This document shows, piece by piece, positions 1,316 through 15,323 of a stretch of DNA of 20,000 nucleotides (positions within the stretch are counted from its first letter, which is position 1; each line of letters begins with the position of its first letter). The notes below the pieces were generated by a model. The model was not told where the DNA came from, did not search any database, and was given only the letters and a program-made list of their open reading frames with translations. Made by a program: the position numbers and the translations under genes. The DNA comes from an uncultured virus (IMG/VR IMGVR_UViG_3300043429_001189) (Duplodnaviria; Heunggongvirae; Uroviricota; Caudoviricetes), in IMG/VR virus record IMGVR_UViG_3300043429_001189, positions 116,024-136,023 of that record, one strand, 5' to 3'.

Positions 1316-1319
1316 AGAG

Positions 1320-1390
1320 CAGAAGCATTAGGATTCGAACCTAAAATAACGCTTTTGGAGAGCGCCATGATACCTTTTCACCATACTCCT
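1320..1390 (-). tRNA. trnW: tRNA-Trp (CCA)
   Basis: Acceptor AGGAGTA/TGCTTCT, anticodon loop CTCCAAA, T-loop TTCGAAT. No encoded CCA end. Confidence 0.9.
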
Positions 1391-1394
1391 GTAT

Positions 1395-1568
1395 TTATTC
1401 ACAGTATTTATTTTTTCTGCACTTGTATTTATTCTCTTCTTTCTTTTTATCTTTAAATACTTTAGGGGCAAACCTTCCATCATAGAATCCTTGTTCCTGG
1501 GCATTTTTTCTTTGTTTACCCATTTCAATTTTCCTAAGTTGTTCTGAAGTTATCACAAATTTTTTCAT
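1395..1568 (-). CDS. 57-aa basic protein, putative ArfA-like ribosome rescue factor
   Basis: Not in the ORF track. MKKFVITSEQLRKIEMGKQRKNAQEQGFYDGRFAPKVFKDKKKEENKYKCRKNKYCE* fills the gap between tRNA-Gln and tRNA-Trp without overlap. DGRFAPKVFKDKK resembles the E. coli ArfA core DPLFRQRVEKNKK. The ORF is likely real; the function is inferred. Confidence 0.6.
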   Translation of the reverse strand: MKKFVITSEQLRKIEMGKQRKNAQEQGFYDGRFAPKVFKDKKKEENKYKCRKNKYCE

Positions 1569-1590
1569 ATTAAAATTTTTAAATTGTGAG

Positions 1591-1661
1591 TTATCTGATC
1601 TGGGCTCGAACCAGAAATTTAGGACTCAAAAACCTACGTGATACCATTTCACTATCAGACA
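1591..1661 (-). tRNA. trnQ: tRNA-Gln (TTG)
   Basis: Acceptor TGTCTGA/TCAGATA, anticodon arm TAGGT-TTTTGAG-TCCTA with a U31.U39 mismatch, T-arm TCTGG-TTCGAGC-CCAGA. Confidence 0.85.
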
Positions 1662-1666
1662 ATATG

Positions 1667-1740
1667 TAGGCCTGGCAGGGTACGATCCTGCAACCCCTGA
1701 ATTAAAAGTTCAGTGCTCTATCCATTTGAGCTACAAGCCT
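1667..1740 (-). tRNA. trnK: tRNA-Lys (TTT)
   Basis: Acceptor AGGCTTG/CAGGCCT, anticodon arm CTGAA-CTTTTAA-TTCAG, atypical T-loop ATCGTAC. Confidence 0.9.
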
Positions 1741-1747
1741 ATATTTG

Positions 1748-1819
1748 AGCCTTCTGTCGGACTCGAACCAACATCTTCTAAATTACAAATTTAAAGCTTT
1801 ACCATTAAGCTAAGAAGGC
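1748..1819 (-). tRNA. trnT: tRNA-Thr (TGT)
   Basis: Acceptor GCCTTCT/AGAAGGC, anticodon arm TTAAA-TTTGTAA-TTTAG, T-loop TTCGAGT. Confidence 0.9.
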
Positions 1820-1827
1820 AATTTGTG

Positions 1828-1903
1828 TCCGAGAAGAAGGGTTCGAACCTTCATGATGTCTGGTTCCCAAAACCAGAGGCTTAGCCAATTAGCCCATTCT
1901 CGG
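1828..1903 (-). tRNA. trnP: tRNA-Pro (TGG)
   Basis: Acceptor CCGAGAA/TTCTCGG, anticodon arm CTGGT-TTTGGGA-ACCAG, T-loop TTCGAAC. Confidence 0.9.
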
Positions 1904-1913
1904 AAATTTGATT

Positions 1914-1955
1914 AAAAACAAAAAGGTCCAGATAATTTAATTACCTGGACCTTTT
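1914..1955 (-). terminator. Intrinsic terminator (attenuator terminator) immediately upstream of tRNA-Pro
   Basis: Minus strand reads AAAAGGTCCAG-GTAAT-TAA-ATTAT-CTGGACCTTTT followed by TGTTTTT. The G-U pair works only on the minus strand. Confidence 0.85.
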
Positions 1956-1988
1956 AAGAATAATAATTACTATTATACTAAGGTCCAG
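1945..1988 (-). promoter_or_regulatory. Antiterminator hairpin mutually exclusive with the 1914-1955 terminator
   Basis: CTGGACCTT(1988-1980)-AG-T-ATAATAG-TAA-TTATTAT-T-CT-TAA-AAGGTCCAG(1953-1945). It makes 9 perfect bp with the terminator 5' arm and has an inner 7-bp stem. Confidence 0.7.
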
Positions 1989-2097
1989 TATCTGGCCACG
2001 TAGACGGTTGTTGAACACAACCAATAACACCAACCGGTGTAGCAACTGTTTTGCTTGTTGCTTTTGAAATTTTAGCTGATGTGATTTGTTGTTTCAT
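1978..2097 (-). CDS. Putative attenuator leader peptide (39 aa)
   Basis: MKQQITSAKISKATSKTVATPVGVIGCVQQPSTWPDTGP*, with an A-rich start context. Its last codons and the TAG stop overlap the antiterminator 5' arm. Confidence 0.7.
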   Translation of the reverse strand: MKQQITSAKISKATSKTVATPVGVIGCVQQPSTWPDTGP

Positions 2098-2116
2098 ATT
2101 TTTAATTTTAATTTAG

Positions 2117-2188
2117 TGGCGGGGCCGGGAATCGAACCCGAACCTCCAGGTTATGAGCCTGGCGAACTACCGTTATTACCACCCCGCA
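2117..2188 (-). tRNA. trnM: tRNA-Met (CAT), initiator-like
   Basis: Acceptor TGCGGGG/CCCCGCC with a 1:72 mismatch, anticodon arm CCAGG-CTCATAA-CCTGG, T-loop TTCGATT. Confidence 0.85.
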
Positions 2189-2487: not shown

Positions 2488-2703
2488 TTATTTATTTTTT
2501 GTGCTTTCTGCTATGATATAAAAAATGTATTTAATCATAACAAAAATATACGGCATGCAAGCTGCAATTCCCAATTTTAGATGCCATATTTGGTACCCAA
2601 ACATATAAGAAAAACCGGCCAAAACTCCTAAAAAGAGTGGGAGAAATATTACATAAATAATAAAATATGCCTCCCACTGTAATCTATCAAAGAATAATTT
2701 CAT
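2488..2703 (-). CDS. Small membrane protein (two predicted TM helices)
   Basis: 71 aa with two hydrophobic stretches, co-oriented with neighbours. Confidence 0.6.
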   Translation of the reverse strand: MKLFFDRLQWEAYFIIYVIFLPLFLGVLAGFSYMFGYQIWHLKLGIAACMPYIFVMIKYIFYIIAESTKNK

Positions 2704-2720
2704 ATATTTTTATATTTTTA

Positions 2721-3269
2721 TTACCACAATCCATCAGAACTTTTAATATCCTTGACTTTAGACAAATCCCAATCAAAATCTGAATGAACTTTAGATTTAC
2801 TAAATATGCCTTTCATATATCTGACATTTCTAATATCCCAATTTCTTAGATTACCATCAAAAGGAGTATCATAAAACATAGATGCCATGTTGGTTACTTT
2901 ACTAACATTCCACCCGCTAACGTCACCCTTAAAAGGTGTCCCTTCAAACATACCTTCCATGTTGGTTACATTGCTAACGTCCCATTCGCTAATGTCACCT
3001 TTAAAATCTGACCCATAAAACATGTAGGACATATTTTTTACATTACTAACATTCCATTCGCTAATGTTGCCATTAAAAGGCATTTCTGCAAATAAGAATG
3101 ACATGTCTTTAATTCGCGAAACATCAACATGACTTAAATCTGCATTAGGCCCAAATTTAGCTATTTCATTTTCAATTATCGACTCTAAAGATTTCCGATC
3201 TATTGCATAAATAACTTTGTTTTGAGCAGCTTCGTTAAGAAACTGATCGAAAGATTTTAAATTTTTCAT
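2721..3269 (-). CDS. DUF285/BspA-like repeat protein with capsid-targeting-like leader (about 5 repeats)
   Basis: MKNLKSFDQFLNE leader, GPNADLSHVDVS cap, and 24-aa FxGDISxWxVSNVxxMxxMF repeats. Confidence 0.85.
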   Translation of the reverse strand: MKNLKSFDQFLNEAAQNKVIYAIDRKSLESIIENEIAKFGPNADLSHVDVSRIKDMSFLFAEMPFNGNISEWNVSNVKNMSYMFYGSDFKGDISEWDVSNVTNMEGMFEGTPFKGDVSGWNVSKVTNMASMFYDTPFDGNLRNWDIRNVRYMKGIFSKSKVHSDFDWDLSKVKDIKSSDGLW

Positions 3270-3273
3270 TTTT

Positions 3274-4050
3274 TTAAATTTTTATATGTTTCAGACCATA
3301 CATTCTATCTACATTATCAGCCTTTGATAAATTCCATTGACTAATATCGCCTTTAAACTTAGAGTCTAAGAACATTATAAATACATCTCTGACATTGCTA
3401 ACGTCCCATTTGCTAATGTCGCCGTTAAATCGAGATTCTGCAAACATGTGCGTCATATCTCTAACTTTGCTAACATTCCACTTGCTGATGTCACCGTTAA
3501 AAGTTGTCTTTTGAAACATGTGCGACATATCAATAACTTTGCTGACATCCCACTTGCTGATGTCGCCATTAAATTTAGACCCTTCAAACAATGATGACAT
3601 CATTTCAACATTACTTACATCCCATTGACTAATGTCGCCGTTAAATTTAGAATATGCAAACATATCAGACATATCACGTACATTGCTTACATCCCACTTG
3701 CTAACATCGCCGTTAAACGAAGAATGACGAAACATTCCCCACACAGTGCGAGCATTACTAACATTCCACTTGCTAACATCGCCGTTAAATTTTGAGAATG
3801 CAAATGTATCATTAAAATTAGTAACATTGCTTACATCCCACTTGCTAACGTCGCCGTTAAATTTTGTACCTGAAAAAGCGGCGCTTATATCGGTTAGACC
3901 TGAAACATCAATGTGATTTAAGTCAGCATTTGGTCCTAGCAATTGAATTTCTTTTAAAATAATTGGTTTTAATTCTTTTGCGTTCTTTGGGACAATAATT
4001 TCGCGTTCTGCTTCATTAAGAAACTGATCAAATGTTTTTAAATTTTTCAT
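3274..4050 (-). CDS. DUF285/BspA-like repeat protein with capsid-targeting-like leader (about 8 repeats)
   Basis: MKNLKTFDQFLNE leader, GPNADLNHIDVS cap, and 24-aa FNGD(V/I)SKW(D/N)VS repeats. Confidence 0.85.
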   Translation of the reverse strand: MKNLKTFDQFLNEAEREIIVPKNAKELKPIILKEIQLLGPNADLNHIDVSGLTDISAAFSGTKFNGDVSKWDVSNVTNFNDTFAFSKFNGDVSKWNVSNARTVWGMFRHSSFNGDVSKWDVSNVRDMSDMFAYSKFNGDISQWDVSNVEMMSSLFEGSKFNGDISKWDVSKVIDMSHMFQKTTFNGDISKWNVSKVRDMTHMFAESRFNGDISKWDVSNVRDVFIMFLDSKFKGDISQWNLSKADNVDRMYGLKHIKI

Positions 4051-4075
4051 TTACTATGTTTTTTTTTATATATAT

Positions 4076-4915
4076 TTAGTTAAACAAATCTTCTTTAGAC
4101 GTTACGTCTCGCAGATTTGTCAAATTCCACATATGAACACTTCTTTTAAATTTAGATCCTTGGAAGATACTTTCAATGTATTGCACTTGTCTTACGTCCC
4201 ACTTACTAATGTCTTGATTAAATGATGAGCCATTAAACATAAAACTCATATTTTCTACATTGCTAACGTTCCATTTGCCGATGTTTTGATTAAATCGAGA
4301 GTCAGCAAACATCCATTGCATATCGGTAACATTTAATACATTCCAATTGCCGATGTCTTGATTAAATTTCGATAACCTAAACATATATGACATATCAGTT
4401 ACTCGTCTTACGTTCCACTTGCTGATGTCACCGTTAAATTGTGATTCCGTAAACATTCCACGCATCAGCTCTACATTACTCACGTTCCAACCACTGATAT
4501 CTCCTTTAAATTTGGAATCTTTGAACATATTAGACATATCAATGACATTACCAACATCCCATTTGCTGATATCTTTATTGAACTCTGATCCTTCAAACAT
4601 ACCTGACATATCTTTTACTTTGCCAACATTCCACTTGCTGATGTCACTATTAAAATGAGAATACAAAAACATATTTTTCATAGAAGTAACATTGCTAACA
4701 TCCCACTTGCTGATATTGCCTTTAAATTGTGACCCTTCAAACAAGGATACCATGTTGGTAACTTGCGAAACGTCAATATGATTCAGATCTGCTTTAGGTC
4801 CAAGTCTAGCAATTTCGCTTTCTACTATATCCTTTAAAGTTTGTCGATCTTTAGCAATAATAGTTTCTTGTGTAGCTTCATTAAGAAAATGTTCAAAAGT
4901 TTTTAAATTTTTCAT
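4076..4915 (-). CDS. DUF285/BspA-like repeat protein with capsid-targeting-like leader (about 9 repeats)
   Basis: MKNLKTFEHFLNE leader, GPKADLNHIDVS cap, and 24-aa repeats. Confidence 0.85.
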   Translation of the reverse strand: MKNLKTFEHFLNEATQETIIAKDRQTLKDIVESEIARLGPKADLNHIDVSQVTNMVSLFEGSQFKGNISKWDVSNVTSMKNMFLYSHFNSDISKWNVGKVKDMSGMFEGSEFNKDISKWDVGNVIDMSNMFKDSKFKGDISGWNVSNVELMRGMFTESQFNGDISKWNVRRVTDMSYMFRLSKFNQDIGNWNVLNVTDMQWMFADSRFNQNIGKWNVSNVENMSFMFNGSSFNQDISKWDVRQVQYIESIFQGSKFKRSVHMWNLTNLRDVTSKEDLFN

Positions 4916-4948
4916 TTACTATGTTTTTATTAATTTTAATATTGCACA

Positions 4949-5620
4949 TTATTTTTTTGCATATGAAGAGATTTTCCAATTTGAAGTATCCCCCTTGAAA
5001 GCTGAGTTATTAAACATGTCGGTCATATCCTCAACCTTACTAACATTCCACTTGCTGATATCTTGATTAAATTCTGAAGATTGAAACATTCCAGCCATAT
5101 CATAAACATTACCTACATTCCATTTGCTGATGTCTTTGTTAAATCTTGAGTCTTGAAACATCCAAGACATATCAGTAACATTACTAACATTCCACTTGCT
5201 GATATCTTGATTAAATTCTGAATAAGCAAACATACCAGTCATAACTTTTACGTTGCTTACATTCCACCTGCTGATATCTTGATTAAATTCTGATGATGCA
5301 AACATATAGGCCATTAATCGAACATTCCGAACATTCCATCCTGAAATGTTACCATTAAAGACTGACTCCTGAAACATATAGGACATGTTTTCAACTTGAC
5401 TAACATCCCATTTACTTATGTTGCCGTTAAAATCTGAATTTTTAAACAACCCCGACATATCTTTAACTTTTGATACATCAATATGATTTAAATCCGCCGT
5501 AGAACCTTGTGTTTTGATTGCATCTTCAATTAGCTTTATTAAATCTGCTTTATCTTTAGCAATAATTGTTGTGCCTGCTGCTTCATTAAGAAACTGCTCA
5601 AAGGTTTTAAAATTTTTCAT
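4949..5620 (-). CDS. DUF285/BspA-like repeat protein with capsid-targeting-like leader (about 7 repeats)
   Basis: MKNFKTFEQFLNE leader, GSTADLNHIDVS cap, and FNQDISKWNVS repeats. Confidence 0.85.
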   Translation of the reverse strand: MKNFKTFEQFLNEAAGTTIIAKDKADLIKLIEDAIKTQGSTADLNHIDVSKVKDMSGLFKNSDFNGNISKWDVSQVENMSYMFQESVFNGNISGWNVRNVRLMAYMFASSEFNQDISRWNVSNVKVMTGMFAYSEFNQDISKWNVSNVTDMSWMFQDSRFNKDISKWNVGNVYDMAGMFQSSEFNQDISKWNVSKVEDMTDMFNNSAFKGDTSNWKISSYAKK

Positions 5621-9512: not shown

Positions 9513-10127
9513 TTAATTATAAATTTTTGATTTATCAACAACTGTTGAAATTTGCCAATCCGATATATCTCCATTAAACTTTGAGTTCTTAAATATACCA
9601 TTCATAGTCAAAACTCTTCCAACATCCCACTTGCTAACATCGCCATTAAACTTTGAATCCGCAAACAGCAATCTCATATCTTCAACATTTTTAGTATTCC
9701 ATTTACTAACATCGCCATTAAACTCAGATCCTTCAAACATACTCTGCATATTTGCAACATTGCTTACATCCCATTTGCTAATGTCGCCATTAAACTTGGA
9801 TCCTTCAAACATGCTTTTCATATTAGCAACATTGCCTACATTCCACTTGCTAATGTCACCATTAAATTTCGAGAATGCAAACATGCCTTTCATATTGGCT
9901 ACCTTTCCCACATTCCACTTGCTAATGTCACCATTAAAAGGTGAGTACATAAACAAGTCAGACATATCAGTTATTTTGGATACATCTATGTGATTCAAAT
10001 CAGCATTTGGTCCTTGCTCTGCTATTTCGGTTTTAACCAATTTTAAAAGCTCGGTTCGATTTGCAGGAACAACAGTTTCTTGTGTTGCTTCATTTATAAA
10101 CTGTTCAAATGTTTTAACTGTTTTCAT
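9513..10127 (-). CDS. DUF285/BspA-like repeat protein with capsid-targeting-like leader (about 6 repeats)
   Basis: MKTVKTFEQFINE leader, GPNADLNHIDVS cap, and FNGD(I/V)SKW repeats. Confidence 0.85.
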   Translation of the reverse strand: MKTVKTFEQFINEATQETVVPANRTELLKLVKTEIAEQGPNADLNHIDVSKITDMSDLFMYSPFNGDISKWNVGKVANMKGMFAFSKFNGDISKWNVGNVANMKSMFEGSKFNGDISKWDVSNVANMQSMFEGSEFNGDVSKWNTKNVEDMRLLFADSKFNGDVSKWDVGRVLTMNGIFKNSKFNGDISDWQISTVVDKSKIYN

Positions 10128-11706: not shown

Positions 11707-11886
11707 TTATTCTTCAGGCTTTTTAGAATTTTGTATTTCTATTCGCAAATCTTGAGCAAGAACTTTTAAATCCTGCATATACTTACGTGCCCGTGTGCCT
11801 GCTGCTTTGTTTCCTGACGCATAAAACTTTTCAATGTCGGATTTTGCCGCAGTAACTACTTCTAAAATTTGATTGTAAATTTCCAT
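11707..11886 (-). CDS. Histone H1-like protein Hc1 family (short Bacteroidota type)
   Basis: MEIYNQILEVVTAAKSDIEKFYASGNKAAGTRARKYMQDLKVLAQDLR carries the GNKAAGTRARK Hc1 signature. Start reassigned to 11886 because the longer ORF overlaps the LamG gene. Confidence 0.85.
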   Translation of the reverse strand: MEIYNQILEVVTAAKSDIEKFYASGNKAAGTRARKYMQDLKVLAQDLRIEIQNSKKPEE

Positions 11887-11910
11887 AAATCTGTTTAATT
11901 GTTTAAAAAT

Positions 11911-11918
11911 TATATATC
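11911..11918 (-). promoter_or_regulatory. Putative late promoter GATATATA
   Basis: 25 nt upstream of the Hc1 ATG at 11886. Confidence 0.5.
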
Positions 11919-11920
11919 TC

Positions 11921-12991
11921 TTATAATCCGTACCTGGATTTAGTGCTATTAAATTCTTGTAAAATTGAAGATGTGTCAAGATTACTTGTCCAAATTTTAA
12001 AGGCACCCATATACGCATTCATATAGTAAGAATTTCCTCCTATTGCTCCAATCCACCAGTTTGGGTTATTAACACCTATATTTGCTACAGGTGTTCCTCC
12101 ACCCGTAGTTGCAATTTCAACTCCATTTTTATAAAATTTAATTGTTTGATTGGTCCTGTTAAATACATAAGTTATCATTTGCCATGTATTTTCAGTTACG
12201 GTATCATTTGCTGTAAATTGTGTTCCGCCAGCCAAACCATTCCCAGCTTCAAAATTAAGATTTCTGTTTTGTGTTTGCCACCCATTCCATGATGCTTTAA
12301 AACCGTTTGTGTTGGTGTTTGCTGCAGCATTTGACATCAAGCAATTAATGCTAAACTCTGACCTTGGATATACCCACCCATTAATTGTTATAGTATTTCC
12401 AAAATTATATTGACCAAATGATATTTTATCCGCGCCTCCATCAAAATCAAAAACGCCGCTTGCAATTCCTGCATTATAAGCTGCGCCTGATATAGTACCG
12501 ACGGCTCCTGTTACATTTCCTAAAGAACCTATATTATTTAAAACGGTGCCTGATCCTGAATATGAAGAAGAAATTCCTGCATCATAATAAAATTGTGCAG
12601 TAATTCCTACAGTAGGTGACCAAGATGTCCAAAAATTGTTTAATGTCATCCAATCTTTTGCGTCACTTGCAGACGCAAAGGGGCCTGTGCCTGATACTTC
12701 GCGAGATAACACATTTGCTAATCCCAAAAAAGAATTATCGGTTTTTTCTACAGATCTCCAAAATTGAACATTACCATCGTTACTTCCATCAGCTGTAGGA
12801 AAATTTGCGCCTGTGACAGCCAAAGCAACTATATATCCCAAATCTTCATCAGGACCAGCAAACCACTTAATACCTCCTGGATTTTTTGAATAATCCACGG
12901 TATTATTGCCAATCGCTAAATTTCCTGATTGCGTTGCACCTGTAATTGCAGACATTGAAGGATTATATGAAAAAGGTCTAACTGTTGCCAT
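11921..12991 (-). CDS. LamG/ConA-like domain virion protein
   Basis: YYDAG..SSYSGSGT, FDFDG, TINGWVYP, WQMITYVF...IKFYKNG and EFNSTKSRYGL are typical of phage LamG-like jelly-roll domains. Confidence 0.8.
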   Translation of the reverse strand: MATVRPFSYNPSMSAITGATQSGNLAIGNNTVDYSKNPGGIKWFAGPDEDLGYIVALAVTGANFPTADGSNDGNVQFWRSVEKTDNSFLGLANVLSREVSGTGPFASASDAKDWMTLNNFWTSWSPTVGITAQFYYDAGISSSYSGSGTVLNNIGSLGNVTGAVGTISGAAYNAGIASGVFDFDGGADKISFGQYNFGNTITINGWVYPRSEFSINCLMSNAAANTNTNGFKASWNGWQTQNRNLNFEAGNGLAGGTQFTANDTVTENTWQMITYVFNRTNQTIKFYKNGVEIATTGGGTPVANIGVNNPNWWIGAIGGNSYYMNAYMGAFKIWTSNLDTSSILQEFNSTKSRYGL

Positions 12992-12997
12992 ACAATA

Positions 12998-13480
12998 TTA
13001 TCTTGTTAATGATGTATTTGTTAAATTTAATTCTCCTTTCATACCCACGTCGCGAGATTTCCAGTAATCTTTACCGTATGATATGAATATTTCTTCTCCT
13101 GCTTTAATAATTCTTGAAGCTCTGAAAACAATTCTTTCCTTGTTTTCATCGTAATGCCATCTAGCGTTAGGCTGGTTTCTGTGATTATATAATGATCCGT
13201 TTCCTAGTGCTAGTGCATACTTGTTATCTTCAAGTTTAAACGCATAATCAATTAGTGAAGTATTAACAATTTCTTCTTTGGCAACAATTAAAACTGGGCA
13301 TTCTTCAATTACTTCATTATCGGTAATTGGTTCAATAGCCCAAATACCTAATCCATCTACTTGTGAATTACCAACGGCTACTTTATCCCATTTTTTTACG
13401 GTTGGTGTTTTTCTTAAAAGTCCACCTCCATGTACAAAAATATCAGACTCTAATATTTCTTCAAAAGATTTAAAATCCAT
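12998..13480 (-). CDS. SET-domain protein-lysine methyltransferase
   Basis: GLGIWAIEPI, SLYNHRNQPNA (NHS to NHR variant) and IKAGEEIFISYG. Start moved to MDFKSFEEILES (13480) to avoid overlap with the upstream gene. Confidence 0.85.
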   Translation of the reverse strand: MDFKSFEEILESDIFVHGGGLLRKTPTVKKWDKVAVGNSQVDGLGIWAIEPITDNEVIEECPVLIVAKEEIVNTSLIDYAFKLEDNKYALALGNGSLYNHRNQPNARWHYDENKERIVFRASRIIKAGEEIFISYGKDYWKSRDVGMKGELNLTNTSLTR

Positions 13481-13490
13481 TTTATCTGAT

Positions 13491-15323
13491 TTATTTTTTA
13501 AATGCCATATATTCCTCAAATTTCATAAATCTTTTTGGAACATTTTTATTTTCCTTTTTAATATCATCTTCATCATCTTTCTTTTCTTCCTCAGGCGCTT
13601 TTTCGTCATCTTTCTTTTCCTCCTCAGGTTTCTTTTCCTCAGGCGCTTTTTCGTCATCTTTCTTTTCCTCCTCGGGTTTCTTTTTATCTTCTTTATCTTC
13701 CTCGGGTTTTTTAACATCTGAAGTTTTTTCCTCAGGCTCTTTTTCTTCGCCACCTAAATCTTTCAATTCTTGTATTGCATTTGTGATAGCTTCAGTGTCT
13801 TTTTCAGGCTCCAATTTAGGAAATTCTTTAAATGCTTTTGCTTCGTCGGGCATTTCTTCATCCTCGCTTTCTATTCCTTTGTTAACCAATTCAACCATAC
13901 GGTTGCGCAAATTAATTTGGTTTATCTTTGCTTGTTTAATTTTTTGTAAATCAGTGATTCCTTCGGTTGCAATTTTCTTTTTATCTTCGCCATCATAAGA
14001 ATTAATACTTTTAAGTATAACACTTTTGATAGTACCTAAAGGGTCTTTTGATTCAGTTTCTTCGATAATTAAATTAATTGCCTCACTTAATTTAAAATTA
14101 ATCATTCTGAATGAAGCAAAAGAAATTGATTCACTCATATTTTTTAATTCTTCTTTATAACCGTCAACCGTTTGTTTTGCTTTTTCTAAAGCATCACTAA
14201 TTAATTTAGCTTTTTCTTCGTCGCCTGCTTCTTCAGCAGATTTTAACTCTTCTTCAGCTTTTTTAATTTTTTCTTCAGCTGACTCAATTCTATCTTTAAG
14301 TTCTTTGGTTTTTGAATCTTCAGTTTTTTCATCAGAAGATTTGTCAGATGTTTTATTTTGCTTGTCTTGAATAGCTTTTTCTATATCGACCCACTTTTTG
14401 TAAACTTCATTTGCTTTATTTGTGTACTCTGTGTATGCATCTTGCCATTGAGTAATTCCATACTTATTTAGAGATTCAATTTGTTTATTTGCTTTTTCAA
14501 ATTGTTCATCAACATTTTCATCAACATTTTCATCATCTTTAACATCAGACAGCTTATTTTTTAATTCTTCAGATGTTTTTTTATCTCCCGTATCAGTTGC
14601 TATTTGAATTGCTTCTTCAAGAACCTCAATGTCAGCATTTCTTTTTGCTTCAGCAAATTCAAGATCCCATTTTTTCTTAAATGAACTTCCCAATATGTTG
14701 GATTGAAGTTCAATAAATTTTTCTTGTTTTTTTTCTATTTTTTCTTTTTCGGTTGTGTAATTATTTTCTGCCTTTTTCCACGCAACCTCTTTCATGTTTT
14801 CAGCTTTTTCCAATTCCTTTTTAGCATTTTCGGTATTACCTTTTGCCGCTGCTAATTTTTGATCTCGCTGTTTTCTTAACTGCTCTTGTTTTGCTGAGTT
14901 CCCTTCAGCTCGTTTAATCATTTCACGGTACTCGTCTTCAATTTGTGTTACAGCTGATTTATCTTCATCATCAGACGATGATTTGGTTTTTGCTTTAAGC
15001 GGCTCAATAACTTCAGTTTTATATTTATGATCAAATACATATTTTGATCTATCAGCGCTGGAATTTTTATAAGCTTCAATATATGGTTTTAATGAACTTT
15101 TTAATGACGTATAAATTGTTCTATTATACACAGACTTTGCAGCCAATAAAGCAATGGATAACGTTCCTGCTGCTACTACATTTGCAACCGATTCCAATTC
15201 ATTTCCTCCACCCCACGAAAATGGACCAATATCTAATCGAGTTGCCTCATCACCTGAAAATTCATAAAGATGTTCATTGCTTTCAACAACAGTCTTTCTT
15301 TCAAGATAATCTTTAAACTTCAT
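13491..15323 (-). CDS. 610-aa Glu/Lys-rich coiled-coil protein, probable internal head/ejection protein
   Basis: Starts MKFKDYLE and has one hydrophobic helix (VANVVAAGTLSIALLAA), long coiled coils and a C-terminal FMKFEEYM motif. It lies directly downstream of the capsid gene. Confidence 0.7.
   Translation of the reverse strand: MKFKDYLERKTVVESNEHLYEFSGDEATRLDIGPFSWGGGNELESVANVVAAGTLSIALLAAKSVYNRTIYTSLKSSLKPYIEAYKNSSADRSKYVFDHKYKTEVIEPLKAKTKSSSDDEDKSAVTQIEDEYREMIKRAEGNSAKQEQLRKQRDQKLAAAKGNTENAKKELEKAENMKEVAWKKAENNYTTEKEKIEKKQEKFIELQSNILGSSFKKKWDLEFAEAKRNADIEVLEEAIQIATDTGDKKTSEELKNKLSDVKDDENVDENVDEQFEKANKQIESLNKYGITQWQDAYTEYTNKANEVYKKWVDIEKAIQDKQNKTSDKSSDEKTEDSKTKELKDRIESAEEKIKKAEEELKSAEEAGDEEKAKLISDALEKAKQTVDGYKEELKNMSESISFASFRMINFKLSEAINLIIEETESKDPLGTIKSVILKSINSYDGEDKKKIATEGITDLQKIKQAKINQINLRNRMVELVNKGIESEDEEMPDEAKAFKEFPKLEPEKDTEAITNAIQELKDLGGEEKEPEEKTSDVKKPEEDKEDKKKPEEEKKDDEKAPEEKKPEEEKKDDEKAPEEEKKDDEDDIKKENKNVPKRFMKFEEYMAFKK
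13574..13683 (-). repeat. 48-bp coding tandem repeat (KKPEEEKKDDEKAPEE, about 2.3 copies)
   Basis: Plus-strand tcctcaggcgctttttcgtcatctttcttttcctcctc occurs at 13588 and 13636. Confidence 0.85.

Follow-up and report, generated by a model that had tools for sequence, protein, structure and literature searches.

The window, i.e. the whole stretch of DNA that was analysed, is 20,000 nucleotides long and forms the end of an IMG/VR phage record of 136 kb. Identical DNA over the region is carried by a 238-kb contig of this phage, whose completeness is 84% according to CheckV. The source is a T4-like jumbo phage, which encodes a T4-type Gp23 capsid protein and a prohead protease. 13 tRNA hits were obtained in the 238-kb contig, and all window ORFs with an assigned function lie on the minus strand. 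The features of the tRNA array containing the gene under study are listed below, in order of coordinate; tRNAs were detected by both ARAGORN and Rfam.

1319..1390, minus strand: tRNA-Trp (CCA)
1391..1394, minus strand: spacer of 4 nt, from the TAA stop to the 5' end of tRNA-Trp (sequence and ARAGORN ends)
1395..1568, minus strand, stop included: basic-protein gene of the GFYDGRF...DKKK family, 57 codons, ATG start (ORF list)
1569..1589, minus strand: A/T-rich leader of 21 nt, from the 3' end of tRNA-Gln to the ATG (sequence and ARAGORN ends)
1590..1661, minus strand: tRNA-Gln (TTG)
1666-1740, minus strand: tRNA-Lys (TTT)
1747-1819, minus strand: tRNA-Thr (TGT)
1827-1903, minus strand: tRNA-Pro (TGG)
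1921..1955, minus strand: terminator-like hairpin upstream of tRNA-Pro, a 16-bp stem followed by a T run (-20.5 kcal/mol, z -6.8)
1978..2097, minus strand: leader ORF of 39 codons (ORF list)
2116..2188, minus strand: tRNA-Met (CAT), the first gene of the array

Read along the minus strand, the order of the genes is Met, Pro, Thr, Lys, Gln, the 57-aa ORF and Trp. Since tRNA-Gln ends at 1590 and tRNA-Trp starts at 1390, the ATG of the ORF follows tRNA-Gln by 21 nt and its TAA precedes tRNA-Trp by 4 nt. The ORF list, ARAGORN and Rfam therefore confirm the location given in an earlier note on this DNA, which had described a Lys-rich ORF of 57 aa placed exactly between the two tRNAs. The product contains 14 Lys and 4 Arg, i.e. 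18 Lys/Arg residues, and its second half includes the run KVFKDKKKEENKYKCRKNK; like ArfA, it is thus a small protein with a positively charged C-terminal half. No Shine-Dalgarno-like run is present in the 21-nt leader. The ORF interval gave no RNA fold signal (z = -0.92), and an Rfam scan of the region at E <= 1 returned tRNAs only.

The leader ORF ends 22 nt before the hairpin at 1921-1955. An alternative hairpin (-17.2 kcal/mol, z -3.0) can form between the 5' arm of the terminator (1945-1954) and the final 11 nt of the leader ORF (1978-1988, stop included). Codons for Thr, Lys, Gln, Pro or Trp account for 20 of the 39 in this ORF, and the same five tRNAs are encoded past the terminator hairpin. 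The region 1904-2115 on the minus strand resembles an attenuator of the leader-peptide type, belonging to a phage tRNA operon. The attenuated operon claimed in the earlier note is present as a layout and, because the upstream leader ORF is accompanied by mutually exclusive terminator and antiterminator hairpins, co-induction of the 57-aa ORF with the tRNAs is structurally plausible.

The ORF ends in a TAA stop of its own and so differs from the stop-less messages of the arfA/brfA type. In the 51 family loci scanned, no T-run hairpin precedes the stop, and in two of them (L011, L014) a weak hairpin extends across it. With cleavage by RNase P at its predicted site, the released message would have 21 nt ahead of the ATG and 4 nt after the stop, and a slight 3' trimming of such a tRNA-processed message would make it stop-less.

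Upstream of tRNA-Met, at 2196-2275 on the minus strand, a T-loop-like GTTCGATTC is found together with G+C-rich arms. No tRNA is called at this position by ARAGORN or Rfam, even at E <= 1, and the element may be a decayed or unusual tRNA-like sequence.

Conservation and genomic settings of the family

A full HMMER scan of 1.84 billion cluster representatives returned 129 at E <= 1e-3, three of which are spurious long repeat proteins, leaving about 126 genuine small proteins. Nearly all members are 35-120 aa long and the core R..A.E.GFYDGRF..KV..DKKK...K..CR is common to the family. Two close relatives, 98% and 74% identical over their full length and differing mostly by conservative changes, were detected by a word-indexed search, and for nine pairs of closely related coding sequences, drawn from phage as well as bacterial loci, pN/pS ranges from 0.00 to 0.12.

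These data bear on the simplest alternative, according to which the ORF is non-genic spacer DNA between two tRNAs. The ORF is indeed short, was absent from the initial ORF track and has no Shine-Dalgarno sequence. This alternative has next to no probability and is refuted by the conservation of the family: the 129 representatives have a motif in common, pN/pS is low, the 74%-identical relative extends over the full length with mostly conservative changes, and the region is without a signal of RNA structure. The ORF at 1395..1568 is a real gene under purifying selection. Its conservation, named in the earlier note as a point on which the proposal could fail, is borne out by the some 126 small proteins and their pN/pS values.

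The family was previously unnamed, and is conserved in Bacteroidota chromosomes and in many phage contigs. Source names, where checked, all read "hypothetical protein", except for one evidently wrong label. Searches of Pfam, NCBIfam and PHROGs with the window protein gave nothing but a sub-threshold touch of DUF7230. An AF2 model (pLDDT 87) consists of a helix at residues 8-25, an extended segment at 31-40 and a second helix at 41-47; Foldseek returned a single row for it, with an E-value of 3.6, and a VIA-align fold search gave only generic helical matches, with Z <= 3.1. In GenBank phages, the peptide had no match by tblastn, and blastn of 4 kb around the gene detected only tRNA and cytidylyltransferase fragments. 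No relative was found by a metagenome scan with a three-sequence alignment of the family. One member, P0087, is called as fused behind a GIY-YIG/SegE-like endonuclease; two other candidate fusions, P0135 and P0264, were rejected as unrelated proteins falling in the same clusters.

A pattern scan located 26 further viral loci and 27 loci in genome contigs, every one of the latter with a title naming Bacteroidota. The gene is present in 6 of 301 genomes of a phylum-wide sample, and in 47 of 146 genomes from the order of G001, a complete host-type genome, always as one copy and with the positives concentrated among the closest relatives. The single copies clustered within that order, along with the rare occurrences across the phylum, indicate vertical retention in one lineage and a sporadic presence elsewhere.

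The embedding among tRNAs is peculiar to the source phage. A tRNA lies no further than 2.5 kb away in only one of the 53 other family loci. In a set of 79 other phages which also carry the cupin gene next to it (72-87% identity), the family gene is absent from the site throughout, and three of them have tRNAs. The cupin itself belongs to a set of genes at 1-1290 on the minus strand, together with cytidylyltransferase and heptose-kinase-like genes (PHROGs 7851, 7878, 8133); with 429 confirmed relatives of the cupin in viral contigs, they represent a widespread phage sugar-nucleotide module.

Neighbourhoods were compared over 19 non-redundant phage loci, after dropping five as duplicates (L008, L010, L014, L017, L025) and leaving out two (L013, L015). 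In six of them the gene directly downstream encodes an RNase H-like protein of the YkuK type (PF04308), in the following arrangement.

About 2630-3280, other phages (L005, L007, L012, L019, L020, L021): family gene, then PF04308 gene

An RNA ligase is encoded no more than two genes away in four of the 19 loci, being of the T4-type Rnl1 in L005 and L007 and a PF09414 RNA ligase in L018 and L019. The same loci include nearby genes for a DSP-type phosphatase (two), an AAA_33 kinase (one) and a phosphoribosyltransferase (four). The family gene, the PF04308 gene and the RNA ligase, DSP phosphatase or AAA_33 kinase may compose an RNA-repair module, two parts of which are uncharacterised. Neither PF04308 and Rnl1 genes nor RF-1-domain genes were found in the 238-kb contig of the source phage.

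A different neighbour is found in bacteria. Of 20 loci from the G001 order, 15 have a gene for an EF-G paralogue upstream of the family gene and on the strand opposite to it; the two genes are directly divergent in 10 of these loci and separated by a DUF983 gene in five. All three of the 15 EF-G genes compared with NCBIfam NF058620 (EFG2_Bacteroid) pass its cutoff. The adjacency is seen in none of seven loci outside the order. No BT4338/Cur-type site was found between the family gene and fusA2, the best sites having 3-6 mismatches. On the other strand, downstream of the family gene, loci L037-L057 contain a conserved gene of about 246-273 aa with no known function.

Three independent settings, i.e. 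the tRNA array, the phage repair genes and the bacterial EF-G2, point to RNA and translation. Even setting ArfA aside, the 57-aa protein is part of a small-protein family which is conserved and under selection, has neighbours linked to RNA and translation, and is often missed by gene callers.

Resemblance to ArfA and to other small proteins

The earlier note had aligned the protein without gaps to the ArfA core. This match was evaluated against E. coli ArfA translated from NC_000913.3, and is correct as described: 7 of 13 residues agree (D, F, R/K, V, K, K, K). As a match between single sequences, it lies at the chance level, since 794 of 5000 shuffled versions of the peptide agree with ArfA at 7 or more positions of a gapless 13-mer. 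By BLASTP, the window protein aligns to E. coli ArfA with E = 2.4, over a stretch different from the quoted 13-mer. The exact regular expression of the earlier note, which was composed after the match was seen, is found in 6 of 200000 shuffles and once in the 18479 six-frame residues of the window.

The same register returns at the family level. Comparison by hhalign of the family (123 sequences) with 11 enterobacterial ArfA sequences gave a score of 25.4 over 35 columns, with a probability of 34% and a P-value of 4.3e-4, a value too weak to stand in a search of some 20000 families, had ArfA not been named beforehand. A, E, D, F, V and the K.KK run are found in both profiles. After column shuffling, the score stays below 25.4 for all of 200 ArfA alignments (maximum 18.7) and all of 200 family alignments (maximum 16.0), and the reversed ArfA alignment scores 10.9. 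Real ArfA sequences obtain 4.2-9.5 bits from the family HMM, and only one of 2000 shuffled ArfA sequences reaches the best or median real score; in the opposite direction, with an ArfA HMM, 31% of the 123 members score higher than the 99th percentile of the shuffles. For 17 control proteins, including RMF, S21, L36 and L30, hhalign scores range from 7.2 to 13.7, against 23.9 for ArfA. In all these comparisons the ArfA profile is narrow, with at least 80% identity among its sequences, because the search gave close relatives only and a metagenome scan performed to widen the alignment added only E. coli-like arfA.

Searches with established models gave a different picture. PF03889, the Pfam model of ArfA, has no hit at E <= 10 on the window protein or in the phage record, the E. 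coli control being positive, no hit at E <= 1 among the 123 family members, and none on the family gene in the host-type genomes G001 and G002. Profile searches of PDB sequences returned no rescue factor, only chance hits to the RuBisCO small subunit, and the neighbours found in the ESM Atlas are the family itself and DUF7230, not ArfA. Of the profile-profile check proposed in the earlier note, the comparison with the narrow ArfA profile has given P 4.3e-4 and a probability of 34%, and the PDB searches have brought no rescue factor.

The contacts with the release factor were also considered. In ArfA, Leu19, Leu24 and Phe25 form a hydrophobic patch contacting Trp319 of RF2, according to PMC5378476. 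In the hhalign register these residues correspond to Gly27, Arg32 and Phe33 of the window protein, so that one of the three residues named there is kept, which speaks against a shared mechanism; Gly27 and Arg32 are invariant or nearly so in the family, and the aromatic residues Phe28 and Tyr29 adjoin the patch. A complex prediction for the RF2 (345 aa) and the family protein of G001 gave scores of 0.09 and 0.05, too low to count for or against an interaction.

Taken at the level of the family, the similarity to ArfA appears weak but specific, and may reflect either homology or convergence on a ribosome-binding motif. On sequence grounds, the family cannot be filed as a member of the ArfA family. 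The ArfA-like identity proposed in the earlier note consequently holds as far as the small size, the basic composition and a profile score above all shuffles and controls are concerned, but finds no counterpart in PF03889, in the PDB searches or, with one residue of three, in the RF2 patch. A partial relative of true ArfA, 60% identical over residues 1-30, was encountered in a 158-kb viral contig (L173, 1501-1590).

Likenesses and differences can be followed further among known systems. ArfA (YhdL, PF03889) is RF2-dependent and belongs to beta- and gammaproteobacteria. Both it and the family protein are small and basic, and the core A..E...D..F..[KR]V.K[DN]KK is common to the two in one gapless register (hhalign P 4e-4). 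The Lys-rich half of the family protein matches the portion of ArfA by which the empty mRNA tunnel is filled (PMC5378476). Unlike ArfA, the family has no PF03889 hit, no hydrophobic C-terminal extension and no stop-less mRNA, is found in Bacteroidota and phages, and carries Gly and Arg at the positions given there for Leu19 and Leu24; its hallmark GFYDGRF, in turn, is missing from ArfA.

Rescue factors that depend on release factors have been described in Proteobacteria (ArfA, ArfT) and in Bacillus (BrfA); none was named for Bacteroidota or phages in the literature searched. BrfA of B. subtilis and ArfT of Francisella are unrelated small basic factors of this kind; they are similar to the family in size, charge and patchy, lineage-specific distribution, and indicate that proteins of this type arise repeatedly (PMC6881298, PMC6299226). 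No sequence similarity to them emerged from the family profile search of PDB chains, which may lack some of these factors, and the BrfA message ends before its stop, whereas the window gene has one. ArfB (YaeJ) possibly does the same job, and family-positive genomes are mostly without an ArfB-like gene; it has, however, a GGQ hydrolase domain of its own, which the window protein lacks.

DUF7230 (PF23876), a neighbour in the ESM Atlas, is matched below cutoff by 7 of the 123 members (best E 5.7e-5). The window protein, which matches on the Lys-rich tail only, stays below the gathering score of 27 bits, with 10.4 bits (E 0.75), or 12.8 bits when the genome was searched. DUF7230 itself has no assigned function, and the term was not found in the literature searched. 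As to RMF, no hit to the Pfam model was seen among the 123 members, and hhalign against E. coli RMF gave P 0.22. Small ORFs and seg homing endonucleases occur in the tRNA gene region of T4; the window resembles it in having a small gene inside a phage tRNA array, and P0087 in being fused to a GIY-YIG/SegE-like endonuclease.

Candidate roles of the family and of the tRNA block

The reading preferred here, to which a probability of roughly 35% is assigned, is that the 57-aa family plausibly represents an ArfA-like ribosome-rescue factor. The Lys-rich half of the protein would bind the ribosome, and the protein would act like ArfA, helping to free ribosomes that have stalled on a broken message or for want of tRNA, probably with a release factor which it recruits. 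In the source phage, the gene would be transcribed with the five tRNAs, whose processing would excise an mRNA of about 199 nt ending 4 nt past the stop codon, and ribosome stalling in the 39-codon leader ORF would cause more read-through into the block of tRNAs and ORF. The block could then work as a phage cassette for restoring translation once tRNAs or mRNAs have been damaged by host defences or by shut-off. The complete version of this scheme, a self-contained translation-repair cassette in which the leader senses a shortage of the five downstream tRNAs and allows transcription past the terminator, the message is a tRNA-punctuated mini-mRNA and the protein stands in for ArfB in the bacterial hosts of the family, is considered improbable as a whole.

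The distribution of ArfB was evaluated by a proxy, namely the presence of three or more RF-1-domain hits per genome, the length having been checked for only three of the third hits. In the G001 order, none of the 47 family-positive genomes has an ArfB-like third RF-1-domain gene, the third hit of one of them (G333) being a second RF-length frame. At least three hits are found in 37 of the 99 family-negative genomes (36 of 98 without G392, a genome flagged as unpublished), and the three third hits checked among these are all ORFs of 137-142 aa. Among seven family-positive genomes outside the order, an ArfB-like ORF is present in one (G449), the case is ambiguous in one (G451), and none is found in five. 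In the phylum-wide sample, a hand count gave at least three hits in 165 of 301 genomes and in one (G152, with three) of the six family-positive ones. The pattern, drawn from few independent lineages and from genomes many of which are MAGs, fits a family factor replacing ArfB.

Other roles are compatible with part of the evidence. The protein could be a small accessory factor that binds RNA and assists phage tRNA/RNA repair or the handling of tRNA, e.g. by holding damaged tRNA for a ligase or shielding tRNA from anticodon nucleases, and not a rescue factor; such a role is possible, if rather doubtful. It would suit the PF04308 gene lying directly after the family gene in 6 of 19 phage loci, the Rnl1 genes in L005 and L007, the PF09414 ligases in L018 and L019, the two DSP phosphatases and the AAA_33 kinase, as well as the position inside a tRNA array in the source phage. 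It agrees poorly with the bacterial copies, which are single chromosomal genes without repair neighbours, and with the source phage, in whose 238-kb contig no PF04308 or Rnl1 gene was found; it also leaves the specific similarity to the ArfA core unexplained. That similarity could itself be coincidental or convergent, in a short basic peptide with an unrelated function, such as nucleic-acid binding or anti-defence. This is a possibility on the low side, in line with the negative outcome of the Pfam, NCBIfam, PHROGs, PDB sequence and fold searches, with the chance level of the single-sequence match, and with the restriction of weak hits to DUF7230, seen in 7 of 123 members (best E 5.7e-5). It has to face the specificity of the ArfA signal against shuffles, the reversed alignment and the 17 controls, and the recurrence of RNA- and translation-related neighbours in the three independent settings.

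The bacterial neighbourhood suggests a further role, that of a ribosome-associated factor of the stress or hibernation type, working with the starvation-induced elongation factor EF-G2 in Bacteroidota and borrowed by phages to tune host ribosomes. In B. thetaiotaomicron, no gene responds to carbon limitation with a stronger induction than that of EF-G2 (PMC6989115), an EF-G paralogue lies beside or near the family gene in 15 of 20 loci of one order, and the three paralogues tested pass the EFG2_Bacteroid cutoff. Since the adjacency is absent from the seven loci outside that order, it may be no more than an inherited gene order. The intergenic regions, in addition, have no BT4338-type site (3-6 mismatches at best), and E. 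coli RMF shows no similarity to the family (hhalign P 0.22, score 10.3). This role is held to be decidedly improbable.

If ribosome rescue, the preferred reading, were true, the family would fill a gap for the Bacteroidota lineages without ArfB, and phages would carry rescue capacity alongside tRNAs and RNA-repair enzymes. It would also offer a simple object for testing, a 57-aa protein with a defined motif and clear bacterial orthologues.

Elsewhere in the window, five paralogous DUF285 (PF03382) repeat proteins, four of them consecutive, are encoded on the minus strand at 2721-5620 and 9513-10127. The same strand encodes an Hc1 histone H1-like protein and, a short distance from it, a SET-domain protein, at 11707-12018 and 12998-13519; a SET-domain gene (3239-3649) is also located two genes from the family gene in the bacterial locus L038.
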